Below are positions 7,566 to 36,857 of a stretch of 64,000 nt of DNA, one piece after another (positions within the stretch are counted from its first letter, which is position 1; each line of letters opens with the position of its first letter). The notes below the pieces were generated by a model. It was not told the DNA's origin and ran no database searches. It saw only the letters and a list, made by a program, of their open reading frames with translations. Source of the stretch: Alphaproteobacteria bacterium (GTDB taxonomy: Bacteria > Pseudomonadota > Alphaproteobacteria > JANQMY01); the NCBI GenBank assembly GCA_965228775.1, contig OZ245840.1, positions 773,326-837,325 of the forward strand, read 5' to 3'. The position numbers were made by a program, and so were the translations under genes.

Positions 7566-10500
7566 CTATGGACTTGGTACGATATCCAAGTAATCGACCC
7601 TTACCATCTCACCTCCCGCACGCGTTCCGACAATCTGAATTGAGTCGCCTGGGGCTAGAGACACATTGGTCGCGATGACCGCCGAGGTCTTATTCGCCGC
7701 CGATGCCGTCGAAGAGCCAAGGGATTGATCGAACACCTTGCTGCCAATCGCGCTGCCGTTAACATTCACCACCGCGGACGCTGTTCCGTCATTTTCATCA
7801 AAGTACCCAAGGGTGATGTCATACGTTCCAGCAGACCCTGCGAATGTCGATGTTGCCGTTCCAACCGTGGCACCGGTTCCTGTTTCAATCCCGAAGAATA
7901 TGAACGAGGGCAGCCTTACGATTTGATTGTTCGAGGCAACACCAGAGACCGTGTCTGTCTGGAACCCGGTCAGGCTCATATCCTCTGTTTCAATGCGGAC
8001 GGGTTGTGCCGCCGCTTGAACATCGACGCTCACCGTAACAGCAGAACTTGTTCCACCATTCCCATCGTTGGCTGTGTAATCGAAACTGGCAGCTCCAGTG
8101 TAACCGGTGTTCGGCGTGAACAAGACATCGCCGTTTACATCCAACGAGGCGGTACCATTCACCGCGTTGGCCACCGATGCGATCGTTAGAGTATCATTTT
8201 CCGGATCGGTATCATTCGCCAATAAAGTAGAGGCCAGGAATGTCGTCGCTGTGTCTTCTGTCGCAGTCACCGAATCCGCGACCGCCGTTGGCGCATCGTT
8301 CACCGCGGTTACACCAATCGATACCGTCGCCGAACTCGCACCCCCGTTTCCATCGGAGATGTCATAGGTAAAGCTGTCGGAGCCCGCATAATTCACATTC
8401 GGCGTGTACTGCACATCTCCATTTACGTCCAGCGAGGCGGTTCCATTCGTGGCGGCCCCCAGTGCCGTAATGGTCAATGTATCGTTTTCCACATCCGTGT
8501 CATTGGCCAACAAGGTCGATGCGAGAATTGTCGTCGGCGTATCTTCCGTCACCGTCAGCGAGTCGCCAGCCGCAACCGGCGCATCATTCACGCTGGTTAC
8601 GGTTACCGTCACCGTGGCCACATTCGTCCCACCGTTTCCGTCATCGGCTGTGTAGTCGAAACTGGCTGTACCGGCGAAATTCGTCGCCGGTGTGAACAGA
8701 ACATCACCATTCACATCCAGTGAAGCGGTACCATTTACGGCGTTCGCCACCGACGCAACGGTCAAAGTGTCATTTTCAGGATCCGTATCATTCGCCAACA
8801 AGGCTGACGCCAGAATGGTTGCCGGCGTGTCTTCGGTCACCGTTGCCGAATCCGCGACCGCCACTGGGGGATCGTTCACCGTTTGCACCTGGACACTCAC
8901 CGAAACAGAGCTTGTCCCGCCATTGCCGTCGTTTGCTGTGTAGTCGAAGCTTGCCGCCCCTACGTAGCCGGCATTCGGCGTAAATGCCACGTCACCATTC
9001 ACATCCAGCGAAACCACGCCATTCGTAGCGCTGCCTACGGCGGATATGGTCAGTGTGTCATTATCCGGGTCCGTGTCGTTGGCCAACAGCGCCGATGCCA
9101 AAATGGTTGCAAGCGTGTCTTCGGTCACCGCCACAGTATCGGCGACAGCTGTGGGAAAATCGTTCACAGCTGTCACACTAACCGTAACAGTCGCCGTACT
9201 GGTTCCACCATTACCGTCATCGGCCGTGTAGTCGAAACTCGCTGCTCCAGAGAAGTTTGCATTCGGCGTGAACAGCACATCGCCATTCACATCCAATGAT
9301 GCGGTGCCATTGGCCGCATTGGCGACCGACGCGATTGTCAGTGTGTCGTTATCCGGATCCGTATCGTTGGCAACAAGAGACGATGCCAGAATGGTTGTCG
9401 GTGTGTCCTCCGAAATCGTCGCAGTGTCCGCGACGGCCGTTGGCGGATTATTGTTGGCCGCTGCATTCACAATGATATCCAGATAGTCGATCCTGGCGAA
9501 CTCACGAACACTCGTATTACCGGAAATCTGGATCGTATCGCCGCTTGTAAGCGCTATTGCCGTTGCGACAACGGTTGAGGTTTTCGTTGCGGCCGTCGCG
9601 CGGGCGGACCCAAGCTGTTGATCGAAAGTCACCGATCCCACAGGTGAACCATTAACCGATACATCGACTGTCGACGTTCCGTCGTTCTCGTCGAAATACC
9701 CTAGAACAAGATCAAAGGTTCCGGCTTGACCGCTATACGTATAGGTCGCCGTGCCGGAAAATGGGGGCAGCGCGGATTCAAAGCCAATAAACTCCAGATA
9801 AGGCAAATGAATAATCTGGTCGTTTGACGCAACTCCAACGACGCTTTCCGTGTTGAAACCGGTCAACGTCATGGATTCCGCCTCAACACGAACCAATTGG
9901 GGCGCTGCCTGCACATCAACCGTCACCGTAGCGGAACTTGTGCCCCCATTGCCGTCATCGGCGGTGTAGTCAAAGCTTGCGGTACCAATAAAGGCCGCAT
10001 TCGGTGTAAACAACACATCACCACCGGCATCCAATGACGCTGTTCCATTAACCGCATTAGCAACCGAAGCAATTGTCAATGTATCGTTTTCCGGATCGGT
10101 GTCGTTCGCCAACAAGGCAGATGCCAGGATTGTCGTTGGCGTATCTTCCAAAATGGTTGCATTGTCCGAAACCGCCATCGGGGCGTCATTAACCGGCGAT
10201 ACATTGACGGTGACCGTCGCGGTGGCACTACCGCCATTACCATCGCCAGCTGTGTAATCAAAGCTCGCCACACCGGCATAATCGCTATTTGGGGTGAACA
10301 ATACGTCACCGTTCACATCAAGCGCAACCGAACCGTTGGTGCCATTCCCCACCGACGTAATTGTAAGTGGATCACTTTCGACGTCCGTATCATTCGCCAG
10401 CAGGGTCGATGCCAGAATTGTCTCAGGCGTGTCTTCCGTTGCGGTCACCGAATCCGCGACGGCAACAGGCGGATCGTTTACGGCTGTAACGTCAACAGCC

Positions 10501-13500
10501 ACCGATGCCGTGCTGGTCCCTCCATTCCCGTCATCTGCTGTGTAATCAAAGCTGGCCGCCCCCACATAGTCCGCGTCCGGCGTAAACAGCACGTCGCCGT
10601 TTACATCCAGCGAGGCGGTTCCGTTCACGGCATTCCCCACCGAAGCGATCGTGAGCGTATTGTTTTCCGGATCGGTGTCATTCGCCAGCAAAACAGATGC
10701 CAGAATAGTGGTTGGTGTGTCTTCGACCACTGTGGTTGAGTCAGCCACTGCCGTTGGCGGATCGTTGACCTCCTGGACCTCGACATTGGCGGTTCCGGTG
10801 CTGCTGCCCCCGTTGCCGTCGTCCACTGTGTAATCAAAGCTGGCCGGCCCCACATAACCCGCATTCGGGGTGAACTGAACATCCCCGTTCACATCTAAGC
10901 TGGCTGTCGCGTTGACGGCATTGGTAACCGACGTGACAGTGAGCGTATCGTTTTCCGCATCCGTATCATTCGAGAGCAATGTGGATGCCGGGATTGTCGT
11001 GGGAGTATCTTCGGCTGCCGTCAAGGAATCGGCCACCACTACCGGTGCATCGTTCACAGCCGTCACATCGACCGTGACGGTCGCGGTATCAGTACCGCCA
11101 TTGCCGTCATCCGCCGTGTAATCGAAACTTGCCGTGCCGAAAAAGTTCGAGTCAGGTGTGAACAGCACGTCCCCATTCACGTCCAGAGAGGCCGTACCAT
11201 TTGACAGGTTCCCGACCGACGCAATTGTCAGCGTATCGTTTTCCGGATCGGTATCATTTGCAAGCAAAGACGATGCGAGCAGAGTCGTTGATGTGTCTTC
11301 GACAACGGTGACGGAATCCGCAACTGCCGCCGGTGGGTCATTAACCGGTGTCACATCCACCGTTACTGTCGTTGTGCTGGTACCACCGTTACCGTCATCG
11401 GCCGTGTAGTCGAAAGCCGCGGCGCCAACATAACCAGCATCGGGTGTGAACAGCACATTGCCATCTAGGTCGAGCGCGGCCGTACCATTTGACGGGTACG
11501 CAACAGAGGCGATCGTCAACGTGTCGTTGTCCGGGTCCGTATCGTTCGCAACCAATGTCGACGCCAAGATAGTTGTCGGCGTATCCTCCGGCACCGCTAC
11601 GGCATCCGCCACCGCGGTTGGCACATCATTAACCGGTGTGACGTTAACAGTCACTGTCGTCGTATTCGTGCCGCCGTTCCCGTCATCGGCGGTGTAGTCG
11701 AAGCTCGCCGCTCCCGCAAAATCCGCCGCCGGTGTGAAAACAACATCGCCGTTCACGTCTAGAGAAGCCGTGCCATTCACGGCGTTGCTGACAGAGGCGA
11801 TCGTCAGCGTATCATTCTCCACATCGGTGTCGTTCGACAACAAGGTCGCCGCAAGAATGGTTGCTTGCGTGTCCTCTACTGTCGTTGCCGTATCGGCAAC
11901 TGCAACCGGAGCATCGTTGACCGGCGTGACATCAACAGTCACGCTTGCGGTACTTGTTCCGCCATTTCCGTCGTCAGCGGTATAGTCAAAGCTTGCGGCC
12001 CCAACATAGTCCGCATTTGGCGTGAACACGACGTCGCCGTTCACGTCCAGAGAGGCCGATCCATTCACGGCAGCTCCCACCGACGCTATCGTCAATGTGT
12101 CATTTTCCGGGTCGGTATCATTCGCCAGCAATGACGAAGCCAAAATGGTTGTTGGTGTGTCTTCAGCAAGAGTGGCCGTGTCTGCCACGGCTGTTGGCGC
12201 ATCGTTCACGGCATTCACAGTAACCGATACTGTTCCGGTCGCGTTGCCGCCATTTCCGTCCGTAACCGTGTAGCTGAAACTATCCGCGCCTGCAAAGTCC
12301 GCATTCGGTGTATAAGTGACACTGAGATTGTCCAAAGCGACCGTAACGGTGCCGTTCGTGCCGTTTGTCGCCGAGACAATGGTGAGTGTATCAGCCTCAG
12401 CATCCGTATCGTTGGCCAGCGGCGTCACAACTACAGCAGTTTCCTCGTCTGTCGTGACATTGTCGTTAACGGCCACAGGCGCATCGTTAACCGCGTTGAC
12501 AGTTACAGTCACTGTTGCAGAGGCACTACCGCCATTTCCATCGGATGCGGTGTACGTGAAACTGTCCGCACCGGCAAAATCCGCGTTCGGTGTGTACGTC
12601 ACACTAAGACTGTCTAATGCTACCGTTACAGTGCCGTTTGTGCCGTTCGTAGCTGAAGCAATCGTCAGAGGATCGTTTTCCGCATCCGTGTCATTCGCCA
12701 GAGGACTGATGGTGACGGCATTGTCTTCATCCGTCGTCGCGCTGTCATCGACTGCCACCGGTGCGTCATTCACGGCGTTGACAGTCACTGCCACGCTGGC
12801 TGTGTCGCTACCACCATTTCCATCAGAGACCGAATAGGTGAAACTGTCGGCGCCGCTGTAGCCAGCGTTCGGCGTATAGGTGAGGCTGAGATTGTCGGGC
12901 GCGAGACTGACCGTCCCATTGGCGCCGTCAGTTGCGGACGCAATCGTTAGATTGTCACCGTCCACGTCCGTGTCGTTTGCCAACGGCGTGACTGTCACCA
13001 CACTGTCTTCGTCAACCGTTGCCGTATCATTGGCCGCTGTGGGTGCATCGTTCACCGCAGCCACATCGATCGTCACTGTCGCCGAATTGGTCCCGCCATT
13101 GCCATCATCGGCGGTGTAGTCAAAATTTGCACTGCCAGCGAAATTTGCATCTGGCGTGAACAGAACATCACCGTTCACATCCAATGCCGCTGTCCCATTG
13201 ACAGGACTTGCTACCGACGACAGCGTTAGCGTGTCATTCTCGGGATCGGTATCGTTGGCCAACAATGTCGCCGCCAATATGGTTTCCGGCGTGTCTTCCG
13301 TTGCGGTCGCCGAATCCGCGACGGCAACAGGCGGGTCGTTTACCGGACTAACGGTCACAGAGACGTTGGCCGTGTCGCTGCCGCCATTCCCGTCTGAGAT
13401 CGTATAGGTAAAGCTGTCCGCCCCTGAATATTCAGCATTTGGCGTGTAGGTTACGCTCACCCCATCCACCGCCACGCTGACTGTGCCGTTGGTGCCGTTC

Positions 13501-16049
13501 GTCGCGGCAGTAATTGTTAGGGTGTGTCCATCAACATCCGTATCATTGGCAAGCGTTGTGATTACGGCCGCTACGTCTTCATCTGTTGTCGCCGTATCGT
13601 CATTGGCGACAGGTGCATCATTAACGGCGTTGACCGTGACCGAAACCGACCCGGTAGCACTGCCGCCATTCCCGTCGGATACCGTATACGTGAAGCTATC
13701 GGCCCCCTCATAGTTTGCCGCCGGCGTGTATGTCACGCTGAGATTATCCACAGCGACACTCACTGTTCCGTTCGCGCCGTTGGTCGCGGAGGCGATGGTC
13801 AACGTATCGCCTTCCACATCCGTATCATTGGCAAGAGGGGTGATCGTAACAGCCGTGTCTTCGTCCGTTGTCGCCGTATCATTATTCGCGACGGGGGCAT
13901 CGTTTACCGGGGTGACGGTTACCGAGATCGTAGCCGTCGCCGAGCCGCCGTTTCCATCAGAGATCGTATACGTGAAACTATCCGATCCGTTATATCCGGC
14001 ATTCGGCATGTAAAGAATACTGAGGCCGTCCACAGCCACGTCAGCGGTACCATTTGTGCCGTTGGTGGCCGAAGCAATCGTCAACGTATCATTGTCAATG
14101 TCTGTGTCGTTCGTAAGCGGGTTTATCGTCACGAACTCGTCTTCGTTCACAACCGCCGTGTCGTCGACCGCCACCGGAGCATCGTTGGCGGCGGATACAG
14201 TGACGGTAACCGTCGCCGTGCTCGTTCCGCCATTGCCGTCGTCAGCGGTATAGTCGAAGGCCGCGCTGCCGAAGTAATCAGCATTGGACGTAAAGACCAC
14301 ATTGCCATTCACATCCAACACAGCACTGCCATTGATGACGTTTGCAACCGAGGCGATCGTCAACACGTCATTATCAGGGTCGGTATCGTTCGCCAGCAAT
14401 GTAGCCGCCAATATGGTTTCCGGAATGTCTTCCGTTGCCGTGACGGCATCGGCCGCGGCGACAGGGTCGCCATTCACTGCTGAATTCACGGTGACCGTGA
14501 TGGCCCCTGTGGCGTGGCCCCCTTCACCGTCACTGATGGTGTACGTAAAGCTATCCGTGCCGGCGAAGGACGCAGACGGCGTGTAAGTGAGGCTTGCACC
14601 GCCTGCGGCCACCGCCACGGTGCCATAGCTGCCGTTCGTCGCCGATGTGATCGTCAGCGGATCGTTGTCCGGATCCGTGTCATTGGCGAGGGCGCTGATC
14701 GTCACCGCGACGTCCTGATCCGTCGTGGCCGTATCGTTGTTCGCCACCGGGAATCCATTCCCCCCCGCCCCTGCAGCCCCAATAAAGGCCATCTCACAGC
14801 CAATACCGGTGAACACATGTTCCGAACTGGCAAGCCATGCATTGCTGTCACAATAGCCAACCGTGGAGTCGTAAATGAGGGTCGTGTTCGCGGTGCGCAC
14901 CCTGTAATGCACGGTGCCGCCGATATTTTCCTGCACGGCGGAGAACGAACTTTGGACAACGCCGTCTGCATTGATTACCAGAAGAAACCCTTTAACCACG
15001 AGAACCGAGACCGTTCCCGTATCGGTCATGCCGTCCGCATCGGAAATCGAATAGGTGAATTCATCAAGCCCCACATAGGCCGTATTCGGCGTATACCGCA
15101 CAACACCGGGAGAGATGATCGACGTCGTCCCATGGCTGCCGGCCGCAACGCTGTCCAGCGTGATCGCGTCGCCATCCGGATCCACATCATTCGACAAAAC
15201 TGAAATATCGAGCGCGGTTTCGAACTCGACCCGCACGCGGTCCATCACCGCCACTGGCGTGCGCTTGAACTGCACCGTAATGTCGGCGGACGCCATGCCG
15301 CCATAGCCGTCGCTCACCGTGTAACTGACAGTTTTTGACCCGACAAATCCCGGATTTGGATCGAACTGAATCTGGGTTCCATTGTTGATGATCTGCGCCG
15401 TCCCGCCCGTGAATGGCGTGACGCCCGTAATCGTGAGCTGGTGACCGTCGGCATCCGTATCATTCTGCCGTGGATCGATAACCAATTGCGTATCCACCAA
15501 TCCGGTTATCTGGTCCGCATTGGCGACGGGAGATTGATTGGCGTTAATCGTCAGCGAGACCGTGGCGGTGTCACTCCCGCCCCGCCCGTCTTCGATCGTG
15601 TAAGTGAATGAATCCGGCCCCAGGAAATCCAAATTGGGCGTGTATTCAAGCGTATTCCCATTCACCCTTACCAAGGTGCCGTTGCCCGGCGCCGTAAACG
15701 AAGCGACGGTCAATACATCATTGTTGCCGTCTGTGTCATTATCTGTCGGGTTGAACCTTCTGGTCTCATTTTGCACCAGTGTCAGCGTATCGTCGGCGGC
15801 CACGGGCGGCACATTGACCGGCACGTTGGATACCGTCTCGGACACCCGGTTGCCGGCGGCGTCGTGCACATAGTCCACTTGCGACCCGTCATCGTAGATG
15901 ATGCGTATGAGCCGCCCCAATTCGTCATAATCGTATGTTTCCGCAACGGCAGCGCCCGCAAGGACCGTGAGTGCTGAAAATGCAAAGAGGGCCTGGCGGA
16001 CACGGGCCACCACGCCGTTCGATTTCGATCGACCGTTAAGTTTTTGCAT
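7566..16049 (-). CDS. giant tandem-repeat adhesin-like protein (cadherin-like/VCBS-type repeats)
   Basis: ~2827 aa from ATG 16049 (MQKLNGRSKSNG..., signal peptide ALFAFSALTVLAGAAVA). About 23 consecutive ~95-aa repeats of the form VNDAPxA.DDtaTt.EDT...I....LLaNDTDpDnDTLTI.SV.....GtA.LD.NGDV.FTP.A.Y.G.ASFDYTADDGNGG....TVTV. An RHS-type YD motif (YDYDELGRLIRIIYDDGSQVDYVHDAAGNRVSE) lies near the N-terminus. Two non-repeat beta-sandwich-like inserts are present. Confidence 0.8.
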   Translation of the reverse strand: MQKLNGRSKSNGVVARVRQALFAFSALTVLAGAAVAETYDYDELGRLIRIIYDDGSQVDYVHDAAGNRVSETVSNVPVNVPPVAADDTLTLVQNETRRFNPTDNDTDGNNDVLTVASFTAPGNGTLVRVNGNTLEYTPNLDFLGPDSFTYTIEDGRGGSDTATVSLTINANQSPVANADQITGLVDTQLVIDPRQNDTDADGHQLTITGVTPFTGGTAQIINNGTQIQFDPNPGFVGSKTVSYTVSDGYGGMASADITVQFKRTPVAVMDRVRVEFETALDISVLSNDVDPDGDAITLDSVAAGSHGTTSIISPGVVRYTPNTAYVGLDEFTYSISDADGMTDTGTVSVLVVKGFLLVINADGVVQSSFSAVQENIGGTVHYRVRTANTTLIYDSTVGYCDSNAWLASSEHVFTGIGCEMAFIGAAGAGGNGFPVANNDTATTDQDVAVTISALANDTDPDNDPLTITSATNGSYGTVAVAAGGASLTYTPSASFAGTDSFTYTISDGEGGHATGAITVTVNSAVNGDPVAAADAVTATEDIPETILAATLLANDTDPDNDVLTIASVANVINGSAVLDVNGNVVFTSNADYFGSAAFDYTADDGNGGTSTATVTVTVSAANDAPVAVDDTAVVNEDEFVTINPLTNDTDIDNDTLTIASATNGTNGTADVAVDGLSILYMPNAGYNGSDSFTYTISDGNGGSATATISVTVTPVNDAPVANNDTATTDEDTAVTITPLANDTDVEGDTLTIASATNGANGTVSVAVDNLSVTYTPAANYEGADSFTYTVSDGNGGSATGSVSVTVNAVNDAPVANDDTATTDEDVAAVITTLANDTDVDGHTLTITAATNGTNGTVSVAVDGVSVTYTPNAEYSGADSFTYTISDGNGGSDTANVSVTVSPVNDPPVAVADSATATEDTPETILAATLLANDTDPENDTLTLSSVASPVNGTAALDVNGDVLFTPDANFAGSANFDYTADDGNGGTNSATVTIDVAAVNDAPTAANDTATVDEDSVVTVTPLANDTDVDGDNLTIASATDGANGTVSLAPDNLSLTYTPNAGYSGADSFTYSVSDGNGGSDTASVAVTVNAVNDAPVAVDDSATTDEDNAVTISPLANDTDAENDPLTIASATNGTNGTVTVALDSLSVTYTPNADFAGADSFTYTASDGNGGSASATVTVTVNAVNDAPVAVNDNVTTDEETAVVVTPLANDTDAEADTLTIVSATNGTNGTVTVALDNLSVTYTPNADFAGADSFSYTVTDGNGGNATGTVSVTVNAVNDAPTAVADTATLAEDTPTTILASSLLANDTDPENDTLTIASVGAAVNGSASLDVNGDVVFTPNADYVGAASFDYTADDGNGGTSTASVTVDVTPVNDAPVAVADTATTVEDTQATILAATLLSNDTDVENDTLTIASVSNAVNGTASLDVNGDVVFTPAADFAGAASFDYTADDGNGGTNTTTVTVNVTPVNDVPTAVADAVAVPEDTPTTILASTLVANDTDPDNDTLTIASVAYPSNGTAALDLDGNVLFTPDAGYVGAAAFDYTADDGNGGTSTTTVTVDVTPVNDPPAAVADSVTVVEDTSTTLLASSLLANDTDPENDTLTIASVGNLSNGTASLDVNGDVLFTPDSNFFGTASFDYTADDGNGGTDTATVTVDVTAVNDAPVVVADSLTAAEDTPTTIPASTLLSNDTDAENDTLTVTSVTNAVNATASLDVNGDVQFTPNAGYVGPASFDYTVDDGNGGSSTGTANVEVQEVNDPPTAVADSTTVVEDTPTTILASVLLANDTDPENNTLTIASVGNAVNGTASLDVNGDVLFTPDADYVGAASFDYTADDGNGGTSTASVAVDVTAVNDPPVAVADSVTATEDTPETILASTLLANDTDVESDPLTITSVGNGTNGSVALDVNGDVLFTPNSDYAGVASFDYTAGDGNGGSATATVTVNVSPVNDAPMAVSDNATILEDTPTTILASALLANDTDPENDTLTIASVANAVNGTASLDAGGDVLFTPNAAFIGTASFDYTADDGNGGTSSATVTVDVQAAPQLVRVEAESMTLTGFNTESVVGVASNDQIIHLPYLEFIGFESALPPFSGTATYTYSGQAGTFDLVLGYFDENDGTSTVDVSVNGSPVGSVTFDQQLGSARATAATKTSTVVATAIALTSGDTIQISGNTSVREFARIDYLDIIVNAAANNNPPTAVADTATISEDTPTTILASSLVANDTDPDNDTLTIASVANAANGTASLDVNGDVLFTPNANFSGAASFDYTADDGNGGTSTATVTVSVTAVNDFPTAVADTVAVTEDTLATILASALLANDTDPDNDTLTISAVGSATNGVVSLDVNGDVAFTPNAGYVGAASFDYTANDGNGGTSSVSVSVQVQTVNDPPVAVADSATVTEDTPATILASALLANDTDPENDTLTVASVANAVNGTASLDVNGDVLFTPATNFAGTASFDYTADDGNGGTNVATVTVTVTSVNDAPVAAGDSLTVTEDTPTTILASTLLANDTDVENDTLTITALGAATNGTASLDVNGDVQYTPNVNYAGSDSFTYDISDGNGGASSATVSIGVTAVNDAPTAVADSVTATEDTATTFLASTLLANDTDPENDTLTIASVANAVNGTASLDVNGDVLFTPNTGYTGAASFDYTANDGNGGTSSAVTVSVDVQAAAQPVRIETEDMSLTGFQTDTVSGVASNNQIVRLPSFIFFGIETGTGATVGTATSTFAGSAGTYDITLGYFDENDGTASAVVNVNGSAIGSKVFDQSLGSSTASAANKTSAVIATNVSLAPGDSIQIVGTRAGGEMVRVDYLDIVPSP
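8080..14800. repeat. ~285-bp intragenic tandem repeats (about 23 copies) within the adhesin gene
   Basis: Highly similar protein repeats are mirrored at the DNA level. They produce many spurious antisense ORFs with an SPFTS...VPF...SVSFSGSVSFA periodicity. Confidence 0.75.
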
Positions 16050-16816
16050 TCCGTAAAAGATCCTCGCACTCAAATAGTCAAAGGGGTGCATCAGGCACAC
16101 CAATAGCGGCAACGTTTCCGGCATTCGAAAACGAACACAAACAAGCGCAAACCTGCTTACCGTGATACGCAATAGAGCGGCGATGCGCTCCGTACAAAGA
16201 TTATCAATCGAGGAAGTTTTGTGTGACGGCCCAATGAGCAAGACAGCTCAAAAATATCACACGATAGAAAATCCCCCCACTGCACGAAGCGCACAATCGG
16301 CGTGTCCTTCGCGCGGCAATTCACACACACCTGTTTAGCGTGTGTCAAGTTAAAGTTTCCCGAAAATCGTTCACATTCTGCGCGTGTATAAATTTTCTTA
16401 TTCAACACAGCAACATAGCGGAAAAAATAGTTATTCTGCTTACTGATTATTTTCATAAATCCGATTTCACAAAAACTTTGCAATTTCGGATTGTGAACTC
16501 AAAACGAGATTTTTCTGTTGACTCACTCATGCGTTGTGAGCAGCATTGCCGCCGAGAGTAACTTTGGGGGGACAGCTGTTTGCTTCCGGAATGGGAGCAA
16601 CGCTATCGACAGGGGTTCATCCAACTATTCGTGTTCATGCGTTCTTTGAACTCTCTCAACAGTGACACATAAGCAATTCTCAGGGGTAAATCTCGGGAGT
16701 AAATCTCGAGCGCAAATCTCGAAGATGAGTCCTGGCCGTGATGACGACAGTCATGCACGCGCGCATATATGTGCGGCGCGCGGCCGGGGAAGTTTTATTT
16801 AACGTGGAGGCCGTCG

Positions 16817-19800
16817 ATGTCCGCGAACGGTGGTGGTGTGTTTGGTTTTGGTGCGTTGACCTTAAAGAATCTTTGTCGGATGGGTACGGTTGGAACCGTT
16901 GCTCTGGCGGCCGCAACGGCCAATCTATTGTTGGACGACTATCCTGCGGCCGCGCAAGTCGTTGTTGAGGTTGATGGCACCCCGCCTCCACCGCAATCGT
17001 TTATTGAAGACACACTTCCAGCCATGCGGCTGCGCTCTATGCCGCTTATATCGCCTACAGATGCGTGGACATACTACCAAGCAAACGGAGGCAATACATC
17101 GCCGGCTGACCCGACACCAAACTATAGAATTGGCAGCTATGCGGCGAACGTTCTGGCAGCCCCATCCCTAATCCAGGAAAACATTCATGACAGTGTCGAG
17201 CTAACCCCCCTATTTGGTCTCCAGAAAGGCGCGGTGGGAGCGATTACGAATGGTACCGGCACAACGTTTGACATGGCGCACTTGGCCGTCAGCTTATTGC
17301 GGGTAAGCAGTGTTCCGGAGAGACCGATAACAGCCAACTATAAGTTTGGGACCGTGACGCTCAATGCGGAACAATTCGGCAAATGGTTTGGTGTTTTCGA
17401 TAACCTTGATGAAGCGAATCAAACATTCACGGTTTCGGCCACAGCCGCCTGCAAAATCCTCGCCGATGGTGGATTTCCAGCCCAAATTAATGGCAACAGC
17501 CCATCAGATTGCAATATCAGCGGTAATCTCAGCACGGTTACCTTCTCTCACGTTTGGGTTAGCGGAACCATTGATGGCGCCCCATTCGAGTTCGACCCAT
17601 CTTATAAGCAACACCGTTTGCATGCCGGTATCCCAAACTTAGCGGGCGCCTTAGGTCACTCGAGTGCCAAAACAACGGCATTGATGAACCTTATAAGCTG
17701 CTCCGCAAGCAACTGCACAAACTTCAATGCCAATGCCGTTAAGCCGGAGATTCAAACTCTCGCCGATAATCTGCTCACCTACATCAAAAACAACGATGAG
17801 AGTCTGCGTTTAGAAGGTTTGCTGGGCGGCAAAACGATTGAACATCTCACGAATGCAGATTTGTCGCTCCCAACCGGCCCGACCTATCAAGCAACGGCCA
17901 CCTGGACTCAGCATATTCCCAACGTCTTCAGAACAACGGTTGTGATTGAAGACAGCGCGACAGTATATCAAAAGAGAGCCACTCAATCCGCGCCGCCGAC
18001 AAACGGCTTTATCATCACAACGGTGACTTTTCCGCACGAGCTGAGATCAAACGTCTTTAACTTTTCAAAGACATTCTATGCCGATGAGATCAACGGCGAG
18101 CGCATTTGGATTGATCCCAAAAAAGTTTTCATTCTCCAAGACAACACGGTAACTCCTAACCGTTTCTATCCGGTGGCTCAGCATAAGCTCCGGATCGATA
18201 CGGATATCTTCGAAATGAATCCATTGGACGGTGGTTTTTTCCTCAATCCGTATGCGCACTACAAATATGATATTGGTGCGATTGCCGAAGAACTCGGTGT
18301 TCCAGACGGGCAAAATTACAAAGGCCAGTTTCCGGTCCGCCTGACGTCGGTTCCGTTTAAAATCACGGTAAATCATCCCTATGCAGCAAATAACGGCACG
18401 GGCATGGACCGTGTCTATAAGCGCAAAGTCGATATTACGCATCCCGCCGTTCTTGTGGTTGGCCTTGGCGATACCACAGACCGTTGGGTCGAAGAAATCG
18501 CCCGCTACGCGTCTTTCCCGATATCGGCACGTACGGATATTCAGAATCAGAACAACGACAACTGGGCCGGATTCGAGCCCTATTCCACGGAAGCCTCACA
18601 TGTAACCGGGGCCACCTGGCTGTCAGGTTTTTCAAAACTCGCAAAAATTCAAGAAGCCATCTCAAAATCAACGATACAGCATCACCACACAATCGGGTTT
18701 GTGATGCGCGACACCCAAAGCACCACAGTATCCGGGAACACTGTCGCTGGGTCGTTTGCGGAAACAATATCTCTAGATACAGCCGTAAGCGTTAATACAC
18801 AGATAGACGCATCAAACCTGCGCCTGCCAACATTTCGCGTGCTTGCAAGTGGGGGCGCCGCGCTGGAAGGACTGGCCATTAGTGAGGTTTATGACTTCGC
18901 ACAACCGTCAACGGTTGGTGGCTACGTGGCCGATTTGGGCGCGTCGAACAAAACTTTCCAAAACTACACCGCATCAGGCTCGGTGGTTGCGGCCCGCACA
19001 TCTGCAATGGATGGTCAAAGCCCGGCGTTTTCCCTCGAAGAAAAAGACTACGTCAACCGCTACTACACCGGCGGTTTTGATGTCTTCATGGCCCTAAACC
19101 AAACGGGTGGGTCAGCCAACGCCCCGCAGCTTGGTTTTGGAACCGCTTCACCCAACAATTTCCTTCACAAGTTCCGAACCCTTATTGCAACCAAGACAGA
19201 CGGAACCGAGATCGCTCATGCTCTCATTGACCGTTGGAACATTTTCAAAGGTGGCGCGGGCATACCGGAAGTCACTCATGATGGGTTTTCAAACCTTGGC
19301 CTCAACTATTCAGGTGCCCGCGCAGCCTCGGGAGCTGCTCTGACGGGTTTTGACGCAATCAGCGGAACACTTACGTACTCGCCGCCGGCCTATATTTCGG
19401 TTGGCAATGGCAGTTATCCTTACACCCTTAGTTTCCGGCAACATTTTAACTCCCACGACCTGAACAACTGGACGCACAATCTGGACAGCAAGGTTACCGT
19501 GGGCACAAATGTGTCGGTGTCGCTTGGGCGCAACCGCGCGCTTGATGCCGTCTGGGCCATTGCAGCCAGCTTCGCTGCCCTTGATGTTTACAGCGACGAT
19601 GCCATCGACCATATGCTGGTCGGCGCCGTGGTGATGGACCAATGGGCGCGCGCCTCCGTTCATAATGTCGCCACGGTGAAACGCGGCACGGACGTGATAC
19701 AGTTTTCCCGTGCCAGCGATGGCGCATTCATGGCCCCTCTTGGGCGCACGGAGTCGTTAACAATGGTCGGCACGGGGCCTGCCCGTTTCGCGCAAGATCT

Positions 19801-22800
19801 TTCGGGACAATCCTACGCCCACAATGTTTTCGACTACCGCAATGCGGAATTCGATCTGACAACCACCGACGGACAGACTTATCAATTTAGACATGCACCA
19901 TTGGTCGGCGGTTCCGCCAGCAATGTGCGCACGGCCTCTATTCCGTTGGCGGATCATCTGTTTGCCAACGGCATGACTGTTGCCTACGATAACGAATATA
20001 CGCCCTACCAAAACGATTTACCCACCGGCGGCACCACCTCTCTCACCCGCGTCTCCAATTCATTGGGGCATTCACTTGAATTTGCTTACAACCGAAACGA
20101 CTCCTCTTCCGGCGCCTATGGGTCCGGAGCGCTGGCTGGTGTTATTCGCGGTGTGCGCGATGCCAATGGCCGGGAAGCCTTTCTTCACTACGACTACAAC
20201 GCAAACTACGACAACAAGCCACACCTGGCCTTTTTCCCAACAGGTGTCACATTGCCGGATGGCGAAAGATATAACTATTTCTTTCAATCTCATGACCGAA
20301 GCTTACCACCGTCAACGAATGGGCGTCTGACTCCGACCGCAACCCAACTTGTTCGTGAATATTGGAAACCCAGGCTCTTTGCGATTACCACGCCGAGCGC
20401 GCCAACGTTTCTTTTTTTGGATTTCACATATGACGGCTTCGGTAAGATCCGAATGGTTAAAGATGCCTACGGAAACCCTTCCGGCTTCTATCGGGCGCCC
20501 GGACGCAGCCAAGTGCTTAACTCGGAAGGGGAAACCACTGCCCAATACTTCGACAAAGATGGCAACGTATTCGGCGCATTCGATTCGCTCGGAAACCTCA
20601 CGACGGCTGAATATGACGGGTTCAACCGTCTGACGAAGGTGACCCGTCCCGAAGGCGACGAAACCCATTACGAATACGATGGCGGCGCCACGGCATCCGC
20701 CTCCGTCAATCACAACCTGACAAAAGTAACACGCAAAGCCAAACCCGGTACCGGCGACAGCGACCTTGTCGCCACCTATGAATACACGGATACCAACTGG
20801 CCCAATGCCGTCACCGCATCGGTAAACCCAAGAGGAACGCGCAGCGAAGTCACCTACGACGCTACGTCGGGACTTCCCACCAGCACGAAAGCGGCTGTCA
20901 GCCTGCCGGAAGAGGTGACAACCCAAACCACCTACATCAATTTAGGCCGTGTCGATAAACAAATTGTCGACCCCACCGGCCTTAATGAAATTACGCAGTT
21001 TACGTATTACCCGGTTTCCGGCGCGTCCAATACATTCCACACCAATGGCGAACTACAAACGGTCACCGTTGACCCGACCGGATTGGCTCTTGGAACGTCT
21101 TACGAATACGACGATGTGGGCAACACCACCAAAGTGACCGACCCCAACACCAACTTTGTCACCACCACCTATGACGCCATGCGGCGGCCATTGCAGGTAG
21201 ACGCACCGCTCAATGCCGTCACCAAGAACATATATGACGTGGATGGCCGTCTGATCAGAACCGAACAGGCCACGGACGATTCACTCAACCCTTGGGCCAT
21301 CACCAACTTTACCTATGATGCACTCAACCGTCTGCGGCAGGTGGCCGATCCCACCGGGGCCGTTACACAGACCGATTATGACAAAGTAGGCCGGCCCACA
21401 GTGGTCACCGACGCCCTTCTGCGCAAAGTCAAGAACGTATACGACGCCGGTGGTCAGCTTATCAAAGTGATCGCCGCCTATCAGGGCACCACGGATGATT
21501 GCGTAGACGGCACCACATTGCAGCAATGCTATCAGCGCAACACCTATTCACCGAACGGCCGCTTGCTCAGCGTTCAGGACGCGAACGATAACATCACCAC
21601 CTATGCCTATGACGGTCATGACCGGCTATTCACATCCACCTTCCCGGACACGTCGTTTGAGCAGTTCACTTACGACGCCAACGGCAATGTTATTGAGCGG
21701 CGCACCCGTGCGGGCGAAACCATCGATCTTACTTACGATGCGCTGGACCGGGTGGCGGCCCGCGAGGTGCCCCAGCCGGGCACGCCCACACCGATTACGT
21801 ATACCTCGGCCTACGACAAGGCGGGGCGCATCGCCTCGCTCATGGGCGATGGCAAGACGCTTACCTTCTCTTACGACAAAGCCGGGCGCCTCACCGCCAA
21901 GCTGCACGGTCTGGGCGGCGGCGGAGGCACCACCAGCATCGGCTATGCCTATGATGCCGCCAGCAACGTCACCCAGCTCACCTATCCCGATGGCTGGTTT
22001 GCGACCCACGAATACGATGCGCTCAACCGGCTCGACCGCATTCTGGAAAACGGCACGCGGGTGCTGGCGGATTATGCCTATGACAAACAATCCCGGCGCA
22101 CCTCCGTTGCCTATGGCAATGGCGCAAACTCCGCTTATACCTTCACCGCACGGGGAGATCTGACGGACCTTACCCTGAACTTCGCCGTTCAGCAGGCGTC
22201 GTTCACCCATGCCTATGACGGGGTGGGACAGCTCACCGGGCGCACTCTGTCCGATCCGGCCTTTGCTCCGAAAGCCCTTCAAGCCGGTGCCACCAATTAC
22301 ACCGCCAACACGCTTAATCAGTATGCGTCTGTTGGCGGGTCCGCCTATACCTATGATCAGAACGGCAACCTCACCGGCACGCCCATCGGCAGTTTCGCCT
22401 ATGACGCGGAGAATGTGCTGCGCAGCGGCACGGTGAACGGCCAGGCCTTCTCCTACACCACCTGGCCCGACGGCAACCGCGCCTCCAAGACCGTGGGCAG
22501 CCTGGACACGGTGTTCTATCTCAATGGCAATCAGGTGATCGCTGACTACGACGGCGGCGGCACCCTCCTGCGCCGTTATGTGCGCGGGCCCAGCGTGGAC
22601 GAAGCCTTCCTGATGATCGACTACACAGGCGCCTCCCCGCAAGAAACCTGGGCCCACCAGGACCGGCTGGGCTCCACCATCGCCGTCAGCGACGATACCG
22701 GCGCTGTACAGGAAAAGATCACCTATGCCTCCTTCGGGGAGACGCAAGCGCAGACCGGCTTCCCGTTCAAGTTCACCGGCCAGCGTTTCGATCCGGAGAC

Positions 22801-23491
22801 GGAGCTTTACCACTACAAAGCCCGATACTACTCCCCCACCCTCGGCAGGTTCCTACAAACCGATCCAATCGGCTATGGATTGGACACCAACCTTTATACG
22901 TATGCACGCAACAACCCACACAGCTATACAGATCCAAGTGGAGAAATCCTGGATACAATACTTGATGCGATTTTTATTGTTTACGACGTTGCTGTGCTGG
23001 CCGTCGATGAAATATTCAATGGAGGAGCAAATAGAACTGAAAACCTGATCGCATTGGGAGCCGATGTTGCCGGCGCGGCGACGCCATTTGTAACAGGCGC
23101 CGGTTTGGGGGTTCGTGCAGCAAACAACGTGGGAGATGTCGTGAAACAGGTGCCCGGGGATAGGGCGCTTGACGCATCTAGCTCAGTCAATCAAGTATTG
23201 TTGCGCAATCAACTTAGTGCAGAGCAAATCGCCAAAGGCCATGCTTTCGACAAGCATGTTGTAACTCGCGGGGAGTATGTTGGTCTTGGGATACGAACCA
23301 GAGCCCAGTTTCAAAATCATGTTGAAAGCGTTATAAACAATCCATCCGCCTCCAGACAGCTGGCAAACGGCAGGGAGGCTTTTTGGGACGACGCGACAGG
23401 CACCGTTGTTATTCGTGATCCTAGACACCTAGATGGCGGGACAGCATTCAGACCCGATCTTGGACGTGAGTACTTCATGCAACTAAAGTAG
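16817..23491 (+). CDS. Rhs/YD-repeat polymorphic toxin with variable C-terminal toxin domain
   Basis: ~2224 aa from ATG 16817 (GGAGG 7 nt upstream). The ORF-track frame opens at 16769. Many YD repeats (YDALNRL, YDVDGRL, YDAGGQL, YDGHDRL, TYDANGNVIERR, YAYDAASNVTQLTYPDGW...). Canonical RHS repeat-associated core (...DRLGSTIAVSDDTGAVQEKITYASFGE...FTGQRFDPETELYHYKARYYSPTLGRFLQTDPIGYGLDTNLYTYARNNPHSYTDPSGE) ending in the DPxG autoproteolysis-type motif. It is followed by a ~190-aa divergent C-terminal domain. Confidence 0.9.
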   Translation: MSANGGGVFGFGALTLKNLCRMGTVGTVALAAATANLLLDDYPAAAQVVVEVDGTPPPPQSFIEDTLPAMRLRSMPLISPTDAWTYYQANGGNTSPADPTPNYRIGSYAANVLAAPSLIQENIHDSVELTPLFGLQKGAVGAITNGTGTTFDMAHLAVSLLRVSSVPERPITANYKFGTVTLNAEQFGKWFGVFDNLDEANQTFTVSATAACKILADGGFPAQINGNSPSDCNISGNLSTVTFSHVWVSGTIDGAPFEFDPSYKQHRLHAGIPNLAGALGHSSAKTTALMNLISCSASNCTNFNANAVKPEIQTLADNLLTYIKNNDESLRLEGLLGGKTIEHLTNADLSLPTGPTYQATATWTQHIPNVFRTTVVIEDSATVYQKRATQSAPPTNGFIITTVTFPHELRSNVFNFSKTFYADEINGERIWIDPKKVFILQDNTVTPNRFYPVAQHKLRIDTDIFEMNPLDGGFFLNPYAHYKYDIGAIAEELGVPDGQNYKGQFPVRLTSVPFKITVNHPYAANNGTGMDRVYKRKVDITHPAVLVVGLGDTTDRWVEEIARYASFPISARTDIQNQNNDNWAGFEPYSTEASHVTGATWLSGFSKLAKIQEAISKSTIQHHHTIGFVMRDTQSTTVSGNTVAGSFAETISLDTAVSVNTQIDASNLRLPTFRVLASGGAALEGLAISEVYDFAQPSTVGGYVADLGASNKTFQNYTASGSVVAARTSAMDGQSPAFSLEEKDYVNRYYTGGFDVFMALNQTGGSANAPQLGFGTASPNNFLHKFRTLIATKTDGTEIAHALIDRWNIFKGGAGIPEVTHDGFSNLGLNYSGARAASGAALTGFDAISGTLTYSPPAYISVGNGSYPYTLSFRQHFNSHDLNNWTHNLDSKVTVGTNVSVSLGRNRALDAVWAIAASFAALDVYSDDAIDHMLVGAVVMDQWARASVHNVATVKRGTDVIQFSRASDGAFMAPLGRTESLTMVGTGPARFAQDLSGQSYAHNVFDYRNAEFDLTTTDGQTYQFRHAPLVGGSASNVRTASIPLADHLFANGMTVAYDNEYTPYQNDLPTGGTTSLTRVSNSLGHSLEFAYNRNDSSSGAYGSGALAGVIRGVRDANGREAFLHYDYNANYDNKPHLAFFPTGVTLPDGERYNYFFQSHDRSLPPSTNGRLTPTATQLVREYWKPRLFAITTPSAPTFLFLDFTYDGFGKIRMVKDAYGNPSGFYRAPGRSQVLNSEGETTAQYFDKDGNVFGAFDSLGNLTTAEYDGFNRLTKVTRPEGDETHYEYDGGATASASVNHNLTKVTRKAKPGTGDSDLVATYEYTDTNWPNAVTASVNPRGTRSEVTYDATSGLPTSTKAAVSLPEEVTTQTTYINLGRVDKQIVDPTGLNEITQFTYYPVSGASNTFHTNGELQTVTVDPTGLALGTSYEYDDVGNTTKVTDPNTNFVTTTYDAMRRPLQVDAPLNAVTKNIYDVDGRLIRTEQATDDSLNPWAITNFTYDALNRLRQVADPTGAVTQTDYDKVGRPTVVTDALLRKVKNVYDAGGQLIKVIAAYQGTTDDCVDGTTLQQCYQRNTYSPNGRLLSVQDANDNITTYAYDGHDRLFTSTFPDTSFEQFTYDANGNVIERRTRAGETIDLTYDALDRVAAREVPQPGTPTPITYTSAYDKAGRIASLMGDGKTLTFSYDKAGRLTAKLHGLGGGGGTTSIGYAYDAASNVTQLTYPDGWFATHEYDALNRLDRILENGTRVLADYAYDKQSRRTSVAYGNGANSAYTFTARGDLTDLTLNFAVQQASFTHAYDGVGQLTGRTLSDPAFAPKALQAGATNYTANTLNQYASVGGSAYTYDQNGNLTGTPIGSFAYDAENVLRSGTVNGQAFSYTTWPDGNRASKTVGSLDTVFYLNGNQVIADYDGGGTLLRRYVRGPSVDEAFLMIDYTGASPQETWAHQDRLGSTIAVSDDTGAVQEKITYASFGETQAQTGFPFKFTGQRFDPETELYHYKARYYSPTLGRFLQTDPIGYGLDTNLYTYARNNPHSYTDPSGEILDTILDAIFIVYDVAVLAVDEIFNGGANRTENLIALGADVAGAATPFVTGAGLGVRAANNVGDVVKQVPGDRALDASSSVNQVLLRNQLSAEQIAKGHAFDKHVVTRGEYVGLGIRTRAQFQNHVESVINNPSASRQLANGREAFWDDATGTVVIRDPRHLDGGTAFRPDLGREYFMQLK
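21670..22867 (+). repeat. ~1.2-kb direct repeat copy A (inside main rhs, YD/RHS-core region)
   Basis: Near-identical at nucleotide level to 24576-25771. Encoded peptides are identical apart from a few substitutions (e.g. DALDRVAAREV vs DPLDRVATRVV). Confidence 0.85.
22915..23491 (+). other. Rhs C-terminal toxin (CT) region: hydrophobic/Gly-rich pre-toxin segment plus unclassified toxin domain
   Basis: Downstream of DPSGE: ILDTILDAIFIVYDVAVLAV (hydrophobic), Gly/Ala-rich TPFVTGAGLGV (PT-TG-like), then a basic His-rich domain with AKGHAFDKHV ... GTVVIRDPRHLDGGTAFRP. No recognisable known toxin family by eye. Confidence 0.5.
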
Positions 23492-23500
23492 AAGATAAAG

Positions 23501-23827
23501 ATGGCTGTAGTCTCTGATAAAATTCTTCAAATAATTAACCGCTCAATTCAAACTATTACTACCACAGAGCTAATCGAAGATTGGGAGTTCGCCATTGTGC
23601 TCGGAATTGAACGAAGTGTTCTTTCTGAGATGAGGAAAATCAGCAATCCCCTAGATTCGAGCGATCTTGACACAAGCATCAATGTGCTTCTCAATCTCGT
23701 CGGCTACCCGCATGGCAAGAAAGCAATCGTTGAAGAAAGCGTCGGTTTTTCTACTAGCGAGTTAAAAGCTGTGTTGGATGAACTCATCAAGCTCAGAGAA
23801 GAGTCCGGCGATAATGGCAACTCTTAA
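23501..23827 (+). CDS. putative cognate immunity protein of the Rhs CT toxin
   Basis: 108-aa acidic ORF starting 10 nt after the rhs stop, in an AT-rich tract. Position immediately 3' of a polymorphic toxin CT is the canonical immunity-gene position. No family recognised. Confidence 0.5.
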   Translation: MAVVSDKILQIINRSIQTITTTELIEDWEFAIVLGIERSVLSEMRKISNPLDSSDLDTSINVLLNLVGYPHGKKAIVEESVGFSTSELKAVLDELIKLREESGDNGNS

Positions 23828-24506: not shown

Positions 24507-24575
24507 TTGGTCAAGCCTTTTTGTGCCCAAAAACGGCCACAGGATTGGCATTCCCCAAACCTTCTTCTGTTCGCT

Positions 24576-25771
24576 TTACGACGCCAACGGCAATGTTATT
24601 GAGCGGCGCACCCGTGCGGGCGAGACCATCGATCTCACTTACGACCCGCTGGACCGGGTGGCGACCCGCGTGGTTCCCCAGCCGGGCACGCCAACACCGA
24701 TTACGTATACCTCGGCCTATGACAAGGCGGGGCGCATCGCCTCGCTCATGGGCGATGGCAAGACCCTCACCTTCTCTTACGACAAAGCCGGGCGCCTCAC
24801 TGCCAAGCTGCACGATCTGGGTGGCGGCGGGGGCACCACCAGCATCGGCTATGCCTATGATGCCGCGAGCAATGTCACCCAGCTCACCTATCCCGATGGC
24901 TGGTTTGCGACCCACGAATACGATGCGCTCAACCGCCTCGACCGCATTCTGGAAAACGGCACGCGAGTGCTGGCGGATTATGCCTATGACAAACAATCCC
25001 GGCGCACCTCCGTTGCCTATGGCAATGGCGCAAACTCCGCCTATACCTTCACCGCAAGGGGAGACTTGACGGACCTCACCCTGAACTTCGCCGTTCAGCA
25101 GGCGTCGTTCACCCATGCCTATGACGGGGTGGGACAGTTGACCGGGCGCACTCTGTCCGATCCGGCCTTTGCCCCGAAAGCCCTTCAAGCCGGTGCCACC
25201 AATTACACCGCCAACACGCTTAATCAGTATGCGTCCGTTGGCGGGTCCGCCTATACCTACGACCAGAACGGCAACCTCACCGGCACGCCCATCGGCAGTT
25301 TCGCCTATGACGCGGAGAATGTGCTGCGCAGCGGCACGGTGAACGGCCAGGCCTTCTCCTACACCACCTGGCCCGACGGCAATCGCGCCTCCAAGACCGT
25401 GGGCAGCCTGGATACGGTGTTCTATCTCAATGGCAATCAGGTGATCGCTGACTACGACGGCAGCGGCACCCTGCTGCGCCGCTATGTGCGCGGGCCCGGC
25501 GTGGACGAAGCGTTCCTGATGATCGACTACACAGGCGCCTCCCCGCAAGAAACCTGGGCCCACCAGGACCGGCTGGGCTCCACCATCGCCGTCAGCGACG
25601 ACACCGGTGCGGTACAGGAAAAGATTACCTATGCCTCCTTCGGGGAGACGCAAGCGCAGACCGGCTTCCCGTTCAAGTTTACCGGCCAGCGCTTCGATCC
25701 GGAGACGGAGCTTTACCACTACAAAGCCCGCTATTATTCCCCCACCCTCGGCAGATTCCTTCAAACCGATC
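24576..25771 (+). repeat. ~1.2-kb direct repeat copy B (orphan rhs fragment)
   Basis: See copy A (21670-22867). Divergence begins at ACCGATCC | CAATCGG versus CGTAGGG. Confidence 0.85.
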
Positions 25772-25959
25772 CCGTAGGGTATGCGGATCAGATGAATTTA
25801 TACGGGTACGGTGGTAATGATCCGATAAATCTGAAAATCCGGCAGGCGAATAACGGTATCCATTCATGGACAAGTCACCCCAAAGAGACTACCTGTTGTG
25901 ATACGAGGCGTAACTCCTTATGTCATTCTTTGACATCTGGGAAAAGTAATCGGTATTGA
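24576..25959 (+). pseudogene. orphan rhs C-terminal module (promoter-less, no start codon, truncated CT)
   Basis: The reading frame begins abruptly inside YD-repeat sequence identical to main rhs 21670 onward. It retains the RHS core up to RFLQTDP, then diverges (VGYADQMNLYGYGGNDPINL...) into a ~45-aa Cys-rich tail before the stop. No immunity ORF follows. The 3' end overlaps the convergent gspC-like gene. Confidence 0.7.
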
Positions 25960-27027: not shown

Positions 27028-27032
27028 GTTCG

Positions 27033-30051: not shown

Positions 30052-30077
30052 TGCCCCCTCGTTAATTGCTCACGTAA

Positions 30078-31295: not shown

Positions 31296-31296
31296 C

Positions 31297-36812: not shown

Positions 36813-36857
36813 TCACGATCCGCAGATCCACCTCTTCGCAGGACTAGAATACTGGAG

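Follow-up and report, generated by a model that had tools for sequence, protein, structure and literature searches.

Fibrillar adhesins built of tandem-95/Big_9 repeats (PF17963, NF012211) are the closest described relatives of the protein analyzed here, a fiber of 2,827 amino acids (aa) encoded in a stretch of 64,000 nucleotides (nt) from Alphaproteobacteria bacterium (assembly GCA_965228775.1, contig OZ245840.1), which we call the window. It shares with these adhesins 25 repeats scoring far above the family cutoff, a marked acidity, and cadherin-like NDTD motifs. It differs from them by a single pair of YD repeats placed right after the signal peptide (the SP-YD tag), by two modules with the fold of carbohydrate-binding modules (CBMs), and by a conserved neighbor coding for a toxin of the Rhs family, whereas the untagged members of the group that we examined are not encoded beside Rhs. 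We rate the fiber itself as a variant within the tandem-95 kind of adhesin, and the association of its tag with Rhs, and in some genomes with a type II secretion system (T2SS), as the part worth pursuing.

In the toxin complex (Tc, or ABC) toxins, made of TcA and TcB/TcC, a YD cocoon of the Rhs type cooperates with a receptor-binding subunit that is the product of another gene. The likeness with the fiber and its Rhs neighbor is one of logic and not of homology: there is no similarity to TcA or to the SpvB and propeller domains of TcB, and docking through a single YD hairpin has no counterpart in these toxins. The giant RTX adhesins of type I secretion systems (T1SSs), such as LapA, MpIBP, and BapA, also have a long extender of immunoglobulin (Ig)-like repeats into which, toward the distal end, ligand-binding modules are inserted. 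However, they lack a signal peptide, contain RTX repeats, and end in a C-terminal T1SS signal, and the fiber is the opposite in all three respects.

Among Rhs toxins, the closest described group is formed by the RHS polymorphic toxins of the Sec/T2SS class, in which the N-terminal domain is an inactive transglutaminase (Zhang et al. 2012; PMC3482391). The Rhs protein of the window resembles it in the signal-peptide-type N-terminus of its homologs, in a sub-threshold match to Transglut_core together with the presence of PF01841 in homologs, and in a polymorphic locus where an orphan module and a putative immunity gene accompany it. Table 1 of that work gives no signature neighbor gene for the class, and a YD-tagged partner is not mentioned (PMC3482391); nor did full-text literature searches return a description of tagged Rhs partners. 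The bacteriocin Bcn-A of Xanthomonas perforans, also of the Rhs family, loses its activity in a mutant of the T2SS secretin gene xpsD and requires accessory open reading frames (ORFs) of its locus (PMC7259588). This dependence is its likeness with the present locus, but Bcn-A has 1,398 aa and its accessory ORFs are small (100–290 aa), with no YD tag or Ig-like repeats described (PMC7259588). A looser parallel to the linkage of YD repeats and T2SS is provided by Bdellovibrio, where several genes with RHS repeats are reported to be neighbors of type IV pilus genes, and where one such gene, Bd0109, reportedly influences the extrusion of pili (PMC3818213).

The comparisons that follow lead us to favor, with a probability of about 45%, the reading that the fiber, instead of being an adhesin in its own right, binds glycans and serves a T2SS-dependent Rhs toxin as its subunit for adhesion or targeting.

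A Signal Peptide Followed by a Single YD Pair

The fiber gene lies on the reverse strand, within a single ORF spanning window positions 7566 to 16241. Translation from the ATG at 16049 gives the 2,827-aa protein, whose N-terminus reads MQKLNGRSKSNGVVARVRQALFAFSALTVLAGAAVA/ETYDYD. Its first 36 residues (15942–16049, reverse strand) form a putative Sec-type signal peptide with a basic n-region, a hydrophobic core, and an AVA/E cleavage motif, as read by inspection and from the alignment with homologs, in which the signal peptide stops 2–5 residues ahead of the YD pair. The pair itself occupies residues 37–72 (15834–15941, reverse strand; TYDYDELGRLIRIIYDDGSQVDYVHDAAGNRVSE) and matches both Pfam RHS_repeat (E = 4.9e-11 for the N-terminal fragment; 23.7 bits against a cutoff of 22 for the whole protein) and NCBIfam YD_repeat_2x (17.8 bits, cutoff 15.8). 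The original prediction, which had recognized a bona fide YD-repeat segment downstream of the signal peptide, is thus borne out. The fiber counts as a YD-repeat protein (PF05593 / TIGR01643) through this one pair: there is no long shell-forming YD array, as a single RHS_repeat stretch is found in the 2,827 aa, and the Rhs-associated core (TIGR03696, DPxG motif) and variable tip are absent from the fiber while being present in the neighboring gene (16769–23491).

A signal peptide with one YD pair is found in 38 of the best 120 homologs of the first 435 aa of the fiber. These tagged homologs, of 360–760 aa, present the signal peptide, 2–5 residues further the motif YxYDxxGRL...YxYDxAGNR, and then Big_9 repeats. 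In the alignment of the tag for 21 family members, positions Y6, Y8, G12, D30, N34, and R35 are invariant, and the fiber shows the defining arrangement of the family, i.e., exactly one YD pair within a few residues of the signal peptide. Rhs loci are prone to recombination, and this one contains an orphan Rhs module (see below), so that one might regard the YD segment as a recombination scar, a chimera of an adhesin gene and the neighboring Rhs element. Yet the pair aligns with scores of 100–126 to the N-termini of other family members and of only 65 to the best repeat of the neighboring Rhs; hence it is not a local Rhs copy. These scores contradict the scar, which is also at odds with the conserved position of the pair right after the signal peptide, and we give it practically no credit. 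The earlier remark that the YD segment is unusual and echoes the neighboring Rhs gene was accordingly incomplete: the segment is not a copy of a repeat of the neighboring Rhs, but is the conserved tag of a family encoded beside Rhs toxins.

The passenger that follows the tag is variable. It may consist of Big_9 repeats, of other Ig-like repeats (loci L021 and L066), or of FG-GAP-like repeats (L077), and in at least nine loci it is missing altogether, the mature product being a hairpin pair of ~40 aa and nothing else. Hairpin-only mini-genes occur at L023, L027, L033, L034, L039, L041, L045, L051, and L056, in Azoarcus, Roseateles, Variovorax, Caballeronia, Nitrospirillum, Asticcacaulis, and Woeseiaceae, and most of them are directly upstream of Rhs. 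Several small YD-tagged Big_9 proteins (P0018, P0040, L016 9932–12814, and L003 11201–11740) end in short cysteine-containing tails (CQNC, CNGTACIGG, CGGFICLPGF, CEFEIC), which could be a sorting or cross-linking motif; the motif is absent from the fiber of the window.

The existence of many family members reduced to a ~40-aa hairpin directly upstream of Rhs is what one would expect if tag proteins were producer-side caps, chaperones, or assembly factors of the Rhs shell, here fused to a long fiber. We find this unlikely as an account of the fiber, because it leaves the intact 25 repeats and the two CBM-like modules unexplained; it is in any case compatible with a role in targeting and does not exclude it.

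Most Tagged Genes Lie Next to Rhs Genes

By exact-sequence look-up, all eight tagged proteins (P0040, P0113, P0075, P0057, P0037, P0062, P0044, and P0063) adjoin an Rhs gene, the Rhs-like ORF at the locus of P0063 (L009) running off the end of the contig. None of the three untagged Big_9 controls from the same hit list has an Rhs neighbor (Fisher p = 0.006 vs. 8/8). A pattern scan of representative genomes gave 80 loci, taken from the first 600 pattern matches listed; the pattern was made from a subset of 10 sequences, the 21-sequence tag alignment being too diverse. Twenty-four of these loci have a single YD pair close to the signal peptide, and a homolog of the window Rhs is found in the flanks of 19 of them, usually at less than 3 kb (20 of 24 with L009; binomial p ~3e-27 for an assumed background of 3%). 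Ten partners also have the N-domain (~1,000 aa) of the window Rhs, at 22–30% identity and with E values down to 1e-73. Partner Rhs proteins of other loci bear clear signal peptides, and no PAAR or VgrG family was found in the partners scanned.

The hosts of tag loci include Caulobacteraceae, Brevundimonas, Oceanicaulis, Terricaulis, Azospirillum, Nitrospirillum, Variovorax, Roseateles, Caballeronia, Azoarcus, Woeseiaceae, and a metagenome-assembled genome (MAG) of Flavobacteriaceae. The relative orientation of tag and Rhs genes changes between them: they are divergent in the window, in L001, and in L004 (25-bp gap), and in L006 they run in the same direction, 14 nt apart. Adjacency that is conserved despite changes of orientation is typical of functional coupling, and since the tag family is encoded next to Rhs toxins, the role to be considered for the fiber shifts from adhesin to partner of an Rhs toxin.

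This bears directly on the view that the fiber is a free-standing surface or biofilm adhesin, binding polysaccharides through its CBM-like modules independently of Rhs. The two genes would then co-travel in a mobile or variable region, and the YD pair would serve some other purpose, for instance to bind carbohydrate or to anchor the protein. Big_9/tandem-95 proteins are indeed generally annotated as adhesins, a CBM fold fits adhesion, a related genome lacks the entire block at the corresponding position (see below), as expected of a variable region, and the interaction of fiber and Rhs is one that we infer. However, tag and Rhs genes remain adjacent in members of the Alpha-, Beta-, and Gammaproteobacteria and in the Flavobacteriaceae MAG while orientation and passengers change, which makes hitch-hiking hard to accept, and the hairpin-only mini-proteins cannot be adhesins. 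A free-standing adhesin seems to us a doubtful explanation, although one that keeps a real share of the probability.

Organization of the Fiber

The body of the fiber contains 25 repeats (25 stretches each for Pfam Big_9, Cadherin_5, and Cadherin_4, and 25 for NCBIfam tandem-95), and its membership in the tandem-95/Big_9 group is clear (Big_9, PF17963, 1871 bits; NF012211, 1578 bits for a cutoff of 90). All its parts lie on the reverse strand. The tag is followed by three divergent Big_9/Cadherin_5 repeats (residues 78–354; 14988–15818), which start at residues 78, 169, and 261 and have 31–52% identity to the other repeats. A non-repeat spacer of 76 aa, ins0 (residues 355–430; 14760–14987), separates repeats 3 and 4. 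Then come 17 Big_9/tandem-95 repeats (residues 431–2046, with starts from 431 to 1953; 9912–14759), an internal CBM-like module, five further Big_9/tandem-95 repeats (residues 2199–2677, with starts from 2199 to 2583; 8019–9455), and a C-terminal CBM-like module. The original prediction had ~23 repeats and held them to be near-identical. On both points it needs revision, as there are 25 (3 divergent, then 17, then 5) and the 22 core repeats share on average 63% identity (range 42–86%) and fall into two subtypes, of 94 aa (7 copies) and 96 aa. The spacer ins0 is a third non-repeat segment, beyond the two inserts noted earlier. It matches no Pfam family and not the hidden Markov model (HMM) of the repeats, and it contains the only two cysteines of the fiber, C400 and C418. 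The composition of the fiber is extremely acidic, with 384 Asp and Glu against 33 Lys and Arg.

At the DNA level the copies of the repeats, which recur every 282 or 288 nt, share 60–73% identity, and Tandem Repeats Finder (TRF) reported no tandem array in the fiber gene. Because the copies have diverged to this extent and TRF finds nothing, the array is old and stably maintained, and an assembly artifact is unlikely.

Two Modules with the Fold of CBMs

The two modules are located two-thirds along the fiber (residues 2047–2198; 9456–9911) and at its C-terminal tip (residues 2678–2827; 7566–8018, of which 7569–8018 code for the residues and the rest is the stop codon), both on the reverse strand. 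They belong to the same domain family, with 83 of 147 residues identical (56%), in agreement with the two inserts with a common pattern and with the coordinates originally given for them. Neither has a match in Pfam or NCBIfam, both remaining below the Pfam gathering thresholds, and a word-indexed search with the C-terminal module returned no homolog. An exhaustive HMM search with both copies as query returned 1,504 representatives of clusters at 50% identity, 236 of them at E <= 1e-30. The consensus of this family is RxEAEDMxLxGY...ASGG...TFxGxxGxYDxxVxYFDENDG...NG...LDQxLG...GDxIxIxG...ExARxDYxxFxP. In this family (proteins P0122–P0270), the module is often present in several copies per protein. 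It stands at the extreme C-terminus in 49 of the best 150 representatives, and the domains that it is combined with include those of GDSL lipases, RTX repeats, and beta-helices. The only matches to fall on the module itself are weak ones to CBM_35 or Endotoxin_C. Among the same 150 representatives, only the protein of the window joins a tag and a CBM-like domain.

A profile of 54 sequences, compared with the PDB, ranked CBM35 (2vzp) and CBM36 (1w0n and 1ux7) on top, with E values of 0.011–0.017. Of two structure models that were made, the one from the 54 sequences is confident (pLDDT 94.8, pTM 0.88). The fold, a beta-jelly-roll, can be superposed on solved members of CBM6, CBM35, and CBM36. 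Residues E10, E12, S29, and D142, which may belong to a structural Ca2+ site such as these CBMs conserve, hardly vary across the family, and the EAE and VDY strands align with those of CBM35/36. Profile and model therefore support a CBM6/CBM35/CBM36 fold for both modules. The CBM resemblance initially proposed holds at the level of the fold but not as formal family membership by sequence: identity to CBM36, CBM35, and CBM6 structures (e.g., 7ay3, 1ux7, 2vzp, 3zm8, and 8j3x) is only 17–25%, and, in contrast to these, the modules have their own strongly conserved YFDENDG motif and sit in a non-enzymatic fiber. With at least 1,504 clusters, an EAE...YFDENDG...RxDY motif, and no Pfam or NCBIfam model, the family is currently missed by annotation pipelines.

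Routes of Secretion

A complete T2SS abuts the Rhs locus (25923–37598, both strands), with GspM, L, J, I, H, G, F, and E on the reverse strand and GspD, K, and the prepilin peptidase on the forward strand; the set GspD, E, F, G, H, I, J, K, L, M, and O is comprised between 26440 and 37598. The Sec/Tat signal peptide that characterizes T2SS substrates is present in the fiber, as judged by inspection and homolog alignment. Outside the window, T2SS genes are found within 10 kb of the tag and Rhs pair in Caulobacter (L003), at locus L093, in Azospirillum (L022), in Burkholderiales (L034), and in Oceanicaulis sp. HTCC2633. In L093 they code for a secretin, pseudopilins, a prepilin peptidase, GspE, and GspF. 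In Oceanicaulis sp. HTCC2633, GspD, GspG, GspE, GspF, pseudopilins, a tagged fiber of 960 aa, and an Rhs of 1,719 aa follow each other on one strand with small gaps. The window contains these three elements as well, a T2SS, a tagged fiber, and an Rhs. At 6 of ~30 loci, the linkage has p ~3e-5 under an assumed background of 2%, which is a rough estimate. The original proposal of the T2SS as candidate route thus gains comparative support, a tagged fiber and an Rhs being found beside T2SS genes in four other lineages.

This recurrent linkage, together with the YD hairpins and Sec signal peptides of both proteins, could alternatively mean that the YD pair, instead of docking on Rhs, is what a dedicated T2SS or its pseudopilus recognizes or sorts by, with tagged proteins and Rhs as parallel cargoes. 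T2SS signals are, however, thought to be conformational and not linear tags, and most tag and Rhs pairs have no T2SS within 10 kb, so that we judge such a signal rather improbable.

Two observations concern the secretion genes themselves. Close to the N-terminus of the secretin GspD (33803–35944) is a lipobox-like LLLAAC/G, a hint that GspD is a self-piloting liposecretin like those of specialized Hxc-type systems. A 176-aa membrane ORF of no known family (25923–26453) overlaps the start of gspM. Separately, a PF27683 (UCP034077) gene is found near the tagged-fiber, Rhs, and T2SS genes of other genomes (L003 9158–9898, L093 16223–16921, and L092 ~1111–1380); it has no homolog in the window.

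The window also codes for a T1SS, with an ABC transporter (57900–59828) and an HlyD-family protein (59833–61191). A giant repeat protein with sugar-binding-type inserts could be an RTX-type adhesin exported by this pair, in the manner of LapA, Bap, or MpIBP, and there is a weak match, below cutoff, to NCBIfam BapA/LapF. But the fiber has an N-terminal signal peptide and a folded CBM-like C-terminus; in Pfam and motif inspection it shows no GGxGxD RTX nonapeptides and no HemolysinCabind. The T1SS genes are 42 kb distant and adjoin the gene of a 728-aa RTX protein (61659–63845) with DUF4114 and 16 HemolysinCabind stretches, the obvious substrate of what is a separate secretion system. The search for a cognate T1SS suggested by the original prediction therefore found a T1SS, but at a distance and next to its own RTX protein. 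Given the signal peptide, the lack of RTX repeats, and the lack of adjacent genes for an ABC transporter and membrane fusion protein, we reject T1SS export, whose probability we consider minimal. Autotransporter or two-partner secretion (type V) and sortase-dependent anchoring were also rejected: Pfam gives no autotransporter, barrel, or two-partner secretion family in the fiber, and its last 60 residues, which belong to a folded module, contain no LPXTG and no transmembrane segment. The absence of an RTX/T1SS C-terminal signal and of LPXTG was correctly predicted, and the original proposal stands as a whole, given that the CBM fold was found and a T1SS or autotransporter signal was not.

The Rhs Gene and Its Genomic Context

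The divergent partner of the fiber gene starts 720 bp from it and codes, on the forward strand (16769–23491), for a Sec-type Rhs toxin of 2,240 aa (Pfam RHS_repeat; TIGR03696 Rhs_assc_core). It comprises an N-domain of ~1,100 aa, a YD shell, the Rhs-associated core, which ends with DPIGYGLD at residue 2032, and a variable tip of 181 aa that corresponds to no known family. The N-domain likewise falls in no known family; Transglut_core matches it only below threshold, whereas homologs carry PF01841. Downstream, a 108-aa ORF (23501–23827, forward strand) occupies the position expected for an immunity gene, for which it is a candidate. It is followed by an orphan Rhs C-terminal module (24523–25959, forward strand), which has 95% identity to residues 1626–2050 of the Rhs (425 aa) and then a different tip.

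The one related genome found, L094 (GCA_028289425.1; 72–79% DNA identity), is syntenic with the window over MetRS-DUF502-GT2-GT1, up to position ~7009. Synteny stops ~550 bp before the 3' end of the fiber gene, where other genes follow, and the block of fiber, Rhs, and T2SS is absent from that position. As GCA_028289425.1 has other genes where the fiber begins, the block is variable between relatives. A metagenome scan gave no close ortholog of the fiber: the best hit has 45% identity, and none covers the tag or ins0.

A Possible Mechanism and Its Implications

In the reading that we favor, fiber and Rhs would both cross the inner membrane by Sec and could assemble in the periplasm. The YD hairpin would dock the fiber on the neighboring Rhs, probably by adding a hairpin to its YD beta-sheet shell, and would in this way tether an Ig-like fiber of ~290 kDa with two CBM-fold modules to the toxin capsule. 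The pair would then exit through the abutting T2SS, and the CBM-like modules may bind a glycan on target cells or surfaces. That the tag binds Rhs is the simplest reading, because a lone hairpin cannot form a shell, is portable, and is nearly always encoded beside Rhs.

Several points weigh against this account. A fiber of 290 kDa and an Rhs shell of 245 kDa are unusually large cargoes for a T2SS, which calls for caution on the mechanism. The T2SS is not adjacent in most tag and Rhs pairs, and a GspF-like gene lies at the edge of one untagged control locus. In the survey of genomes, which drew on only the first 600 pattern matches, 4 of 24 tag loci lack an Rhs up to a distance of 10 kb, and no Rosetta-stone fusion of Big_9 with the Rhs N-domain was seen among 22 homologs. 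No other tagged member that we found has CBM-like modules or exceeds ~10 repeats, so the role of the fiber of the window may differ from that of the small members. Finally, its signal peptide was read only by eye and from alignment, and we infer, rather than observe, the physical contact of tag and Rhs, as well as the T2SS route and the binding of glycans.

A more general proposal, tentative and with the odds clearly against it, is that a signal peptide plus a single YD hairpin acts as a portable tag, of a kind not described before, for docking on Sec-exported Rhs toxins. It would complete or extend the Rhs beta-shell and carry interchangeable passengers, be it none, Ig-like fibers, or the CBM-tipped fiber of the window, with a dedicated T2SS exporting the complex.

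Our literature search indicates that mechanistic work on Rhs toxins of Gram-negative bacteria almost exclusively concerns delivery by type VI secretion systems (T6SSs). For the exit and targeting of Rhs toxins with signal peptides, the one genetic hint that we found is the T2SS dependence of Bcn-A (PMC7259588). If the proposal is true, tag, Rhs, and T2SS would constitute a T6SS-independent, three-part system for the delivery of Rhs toxins in Gram-negative bacteria, and a conserved tagged partner gene, recurrently linked to T2SS, provides a concrete and testable handle on it.

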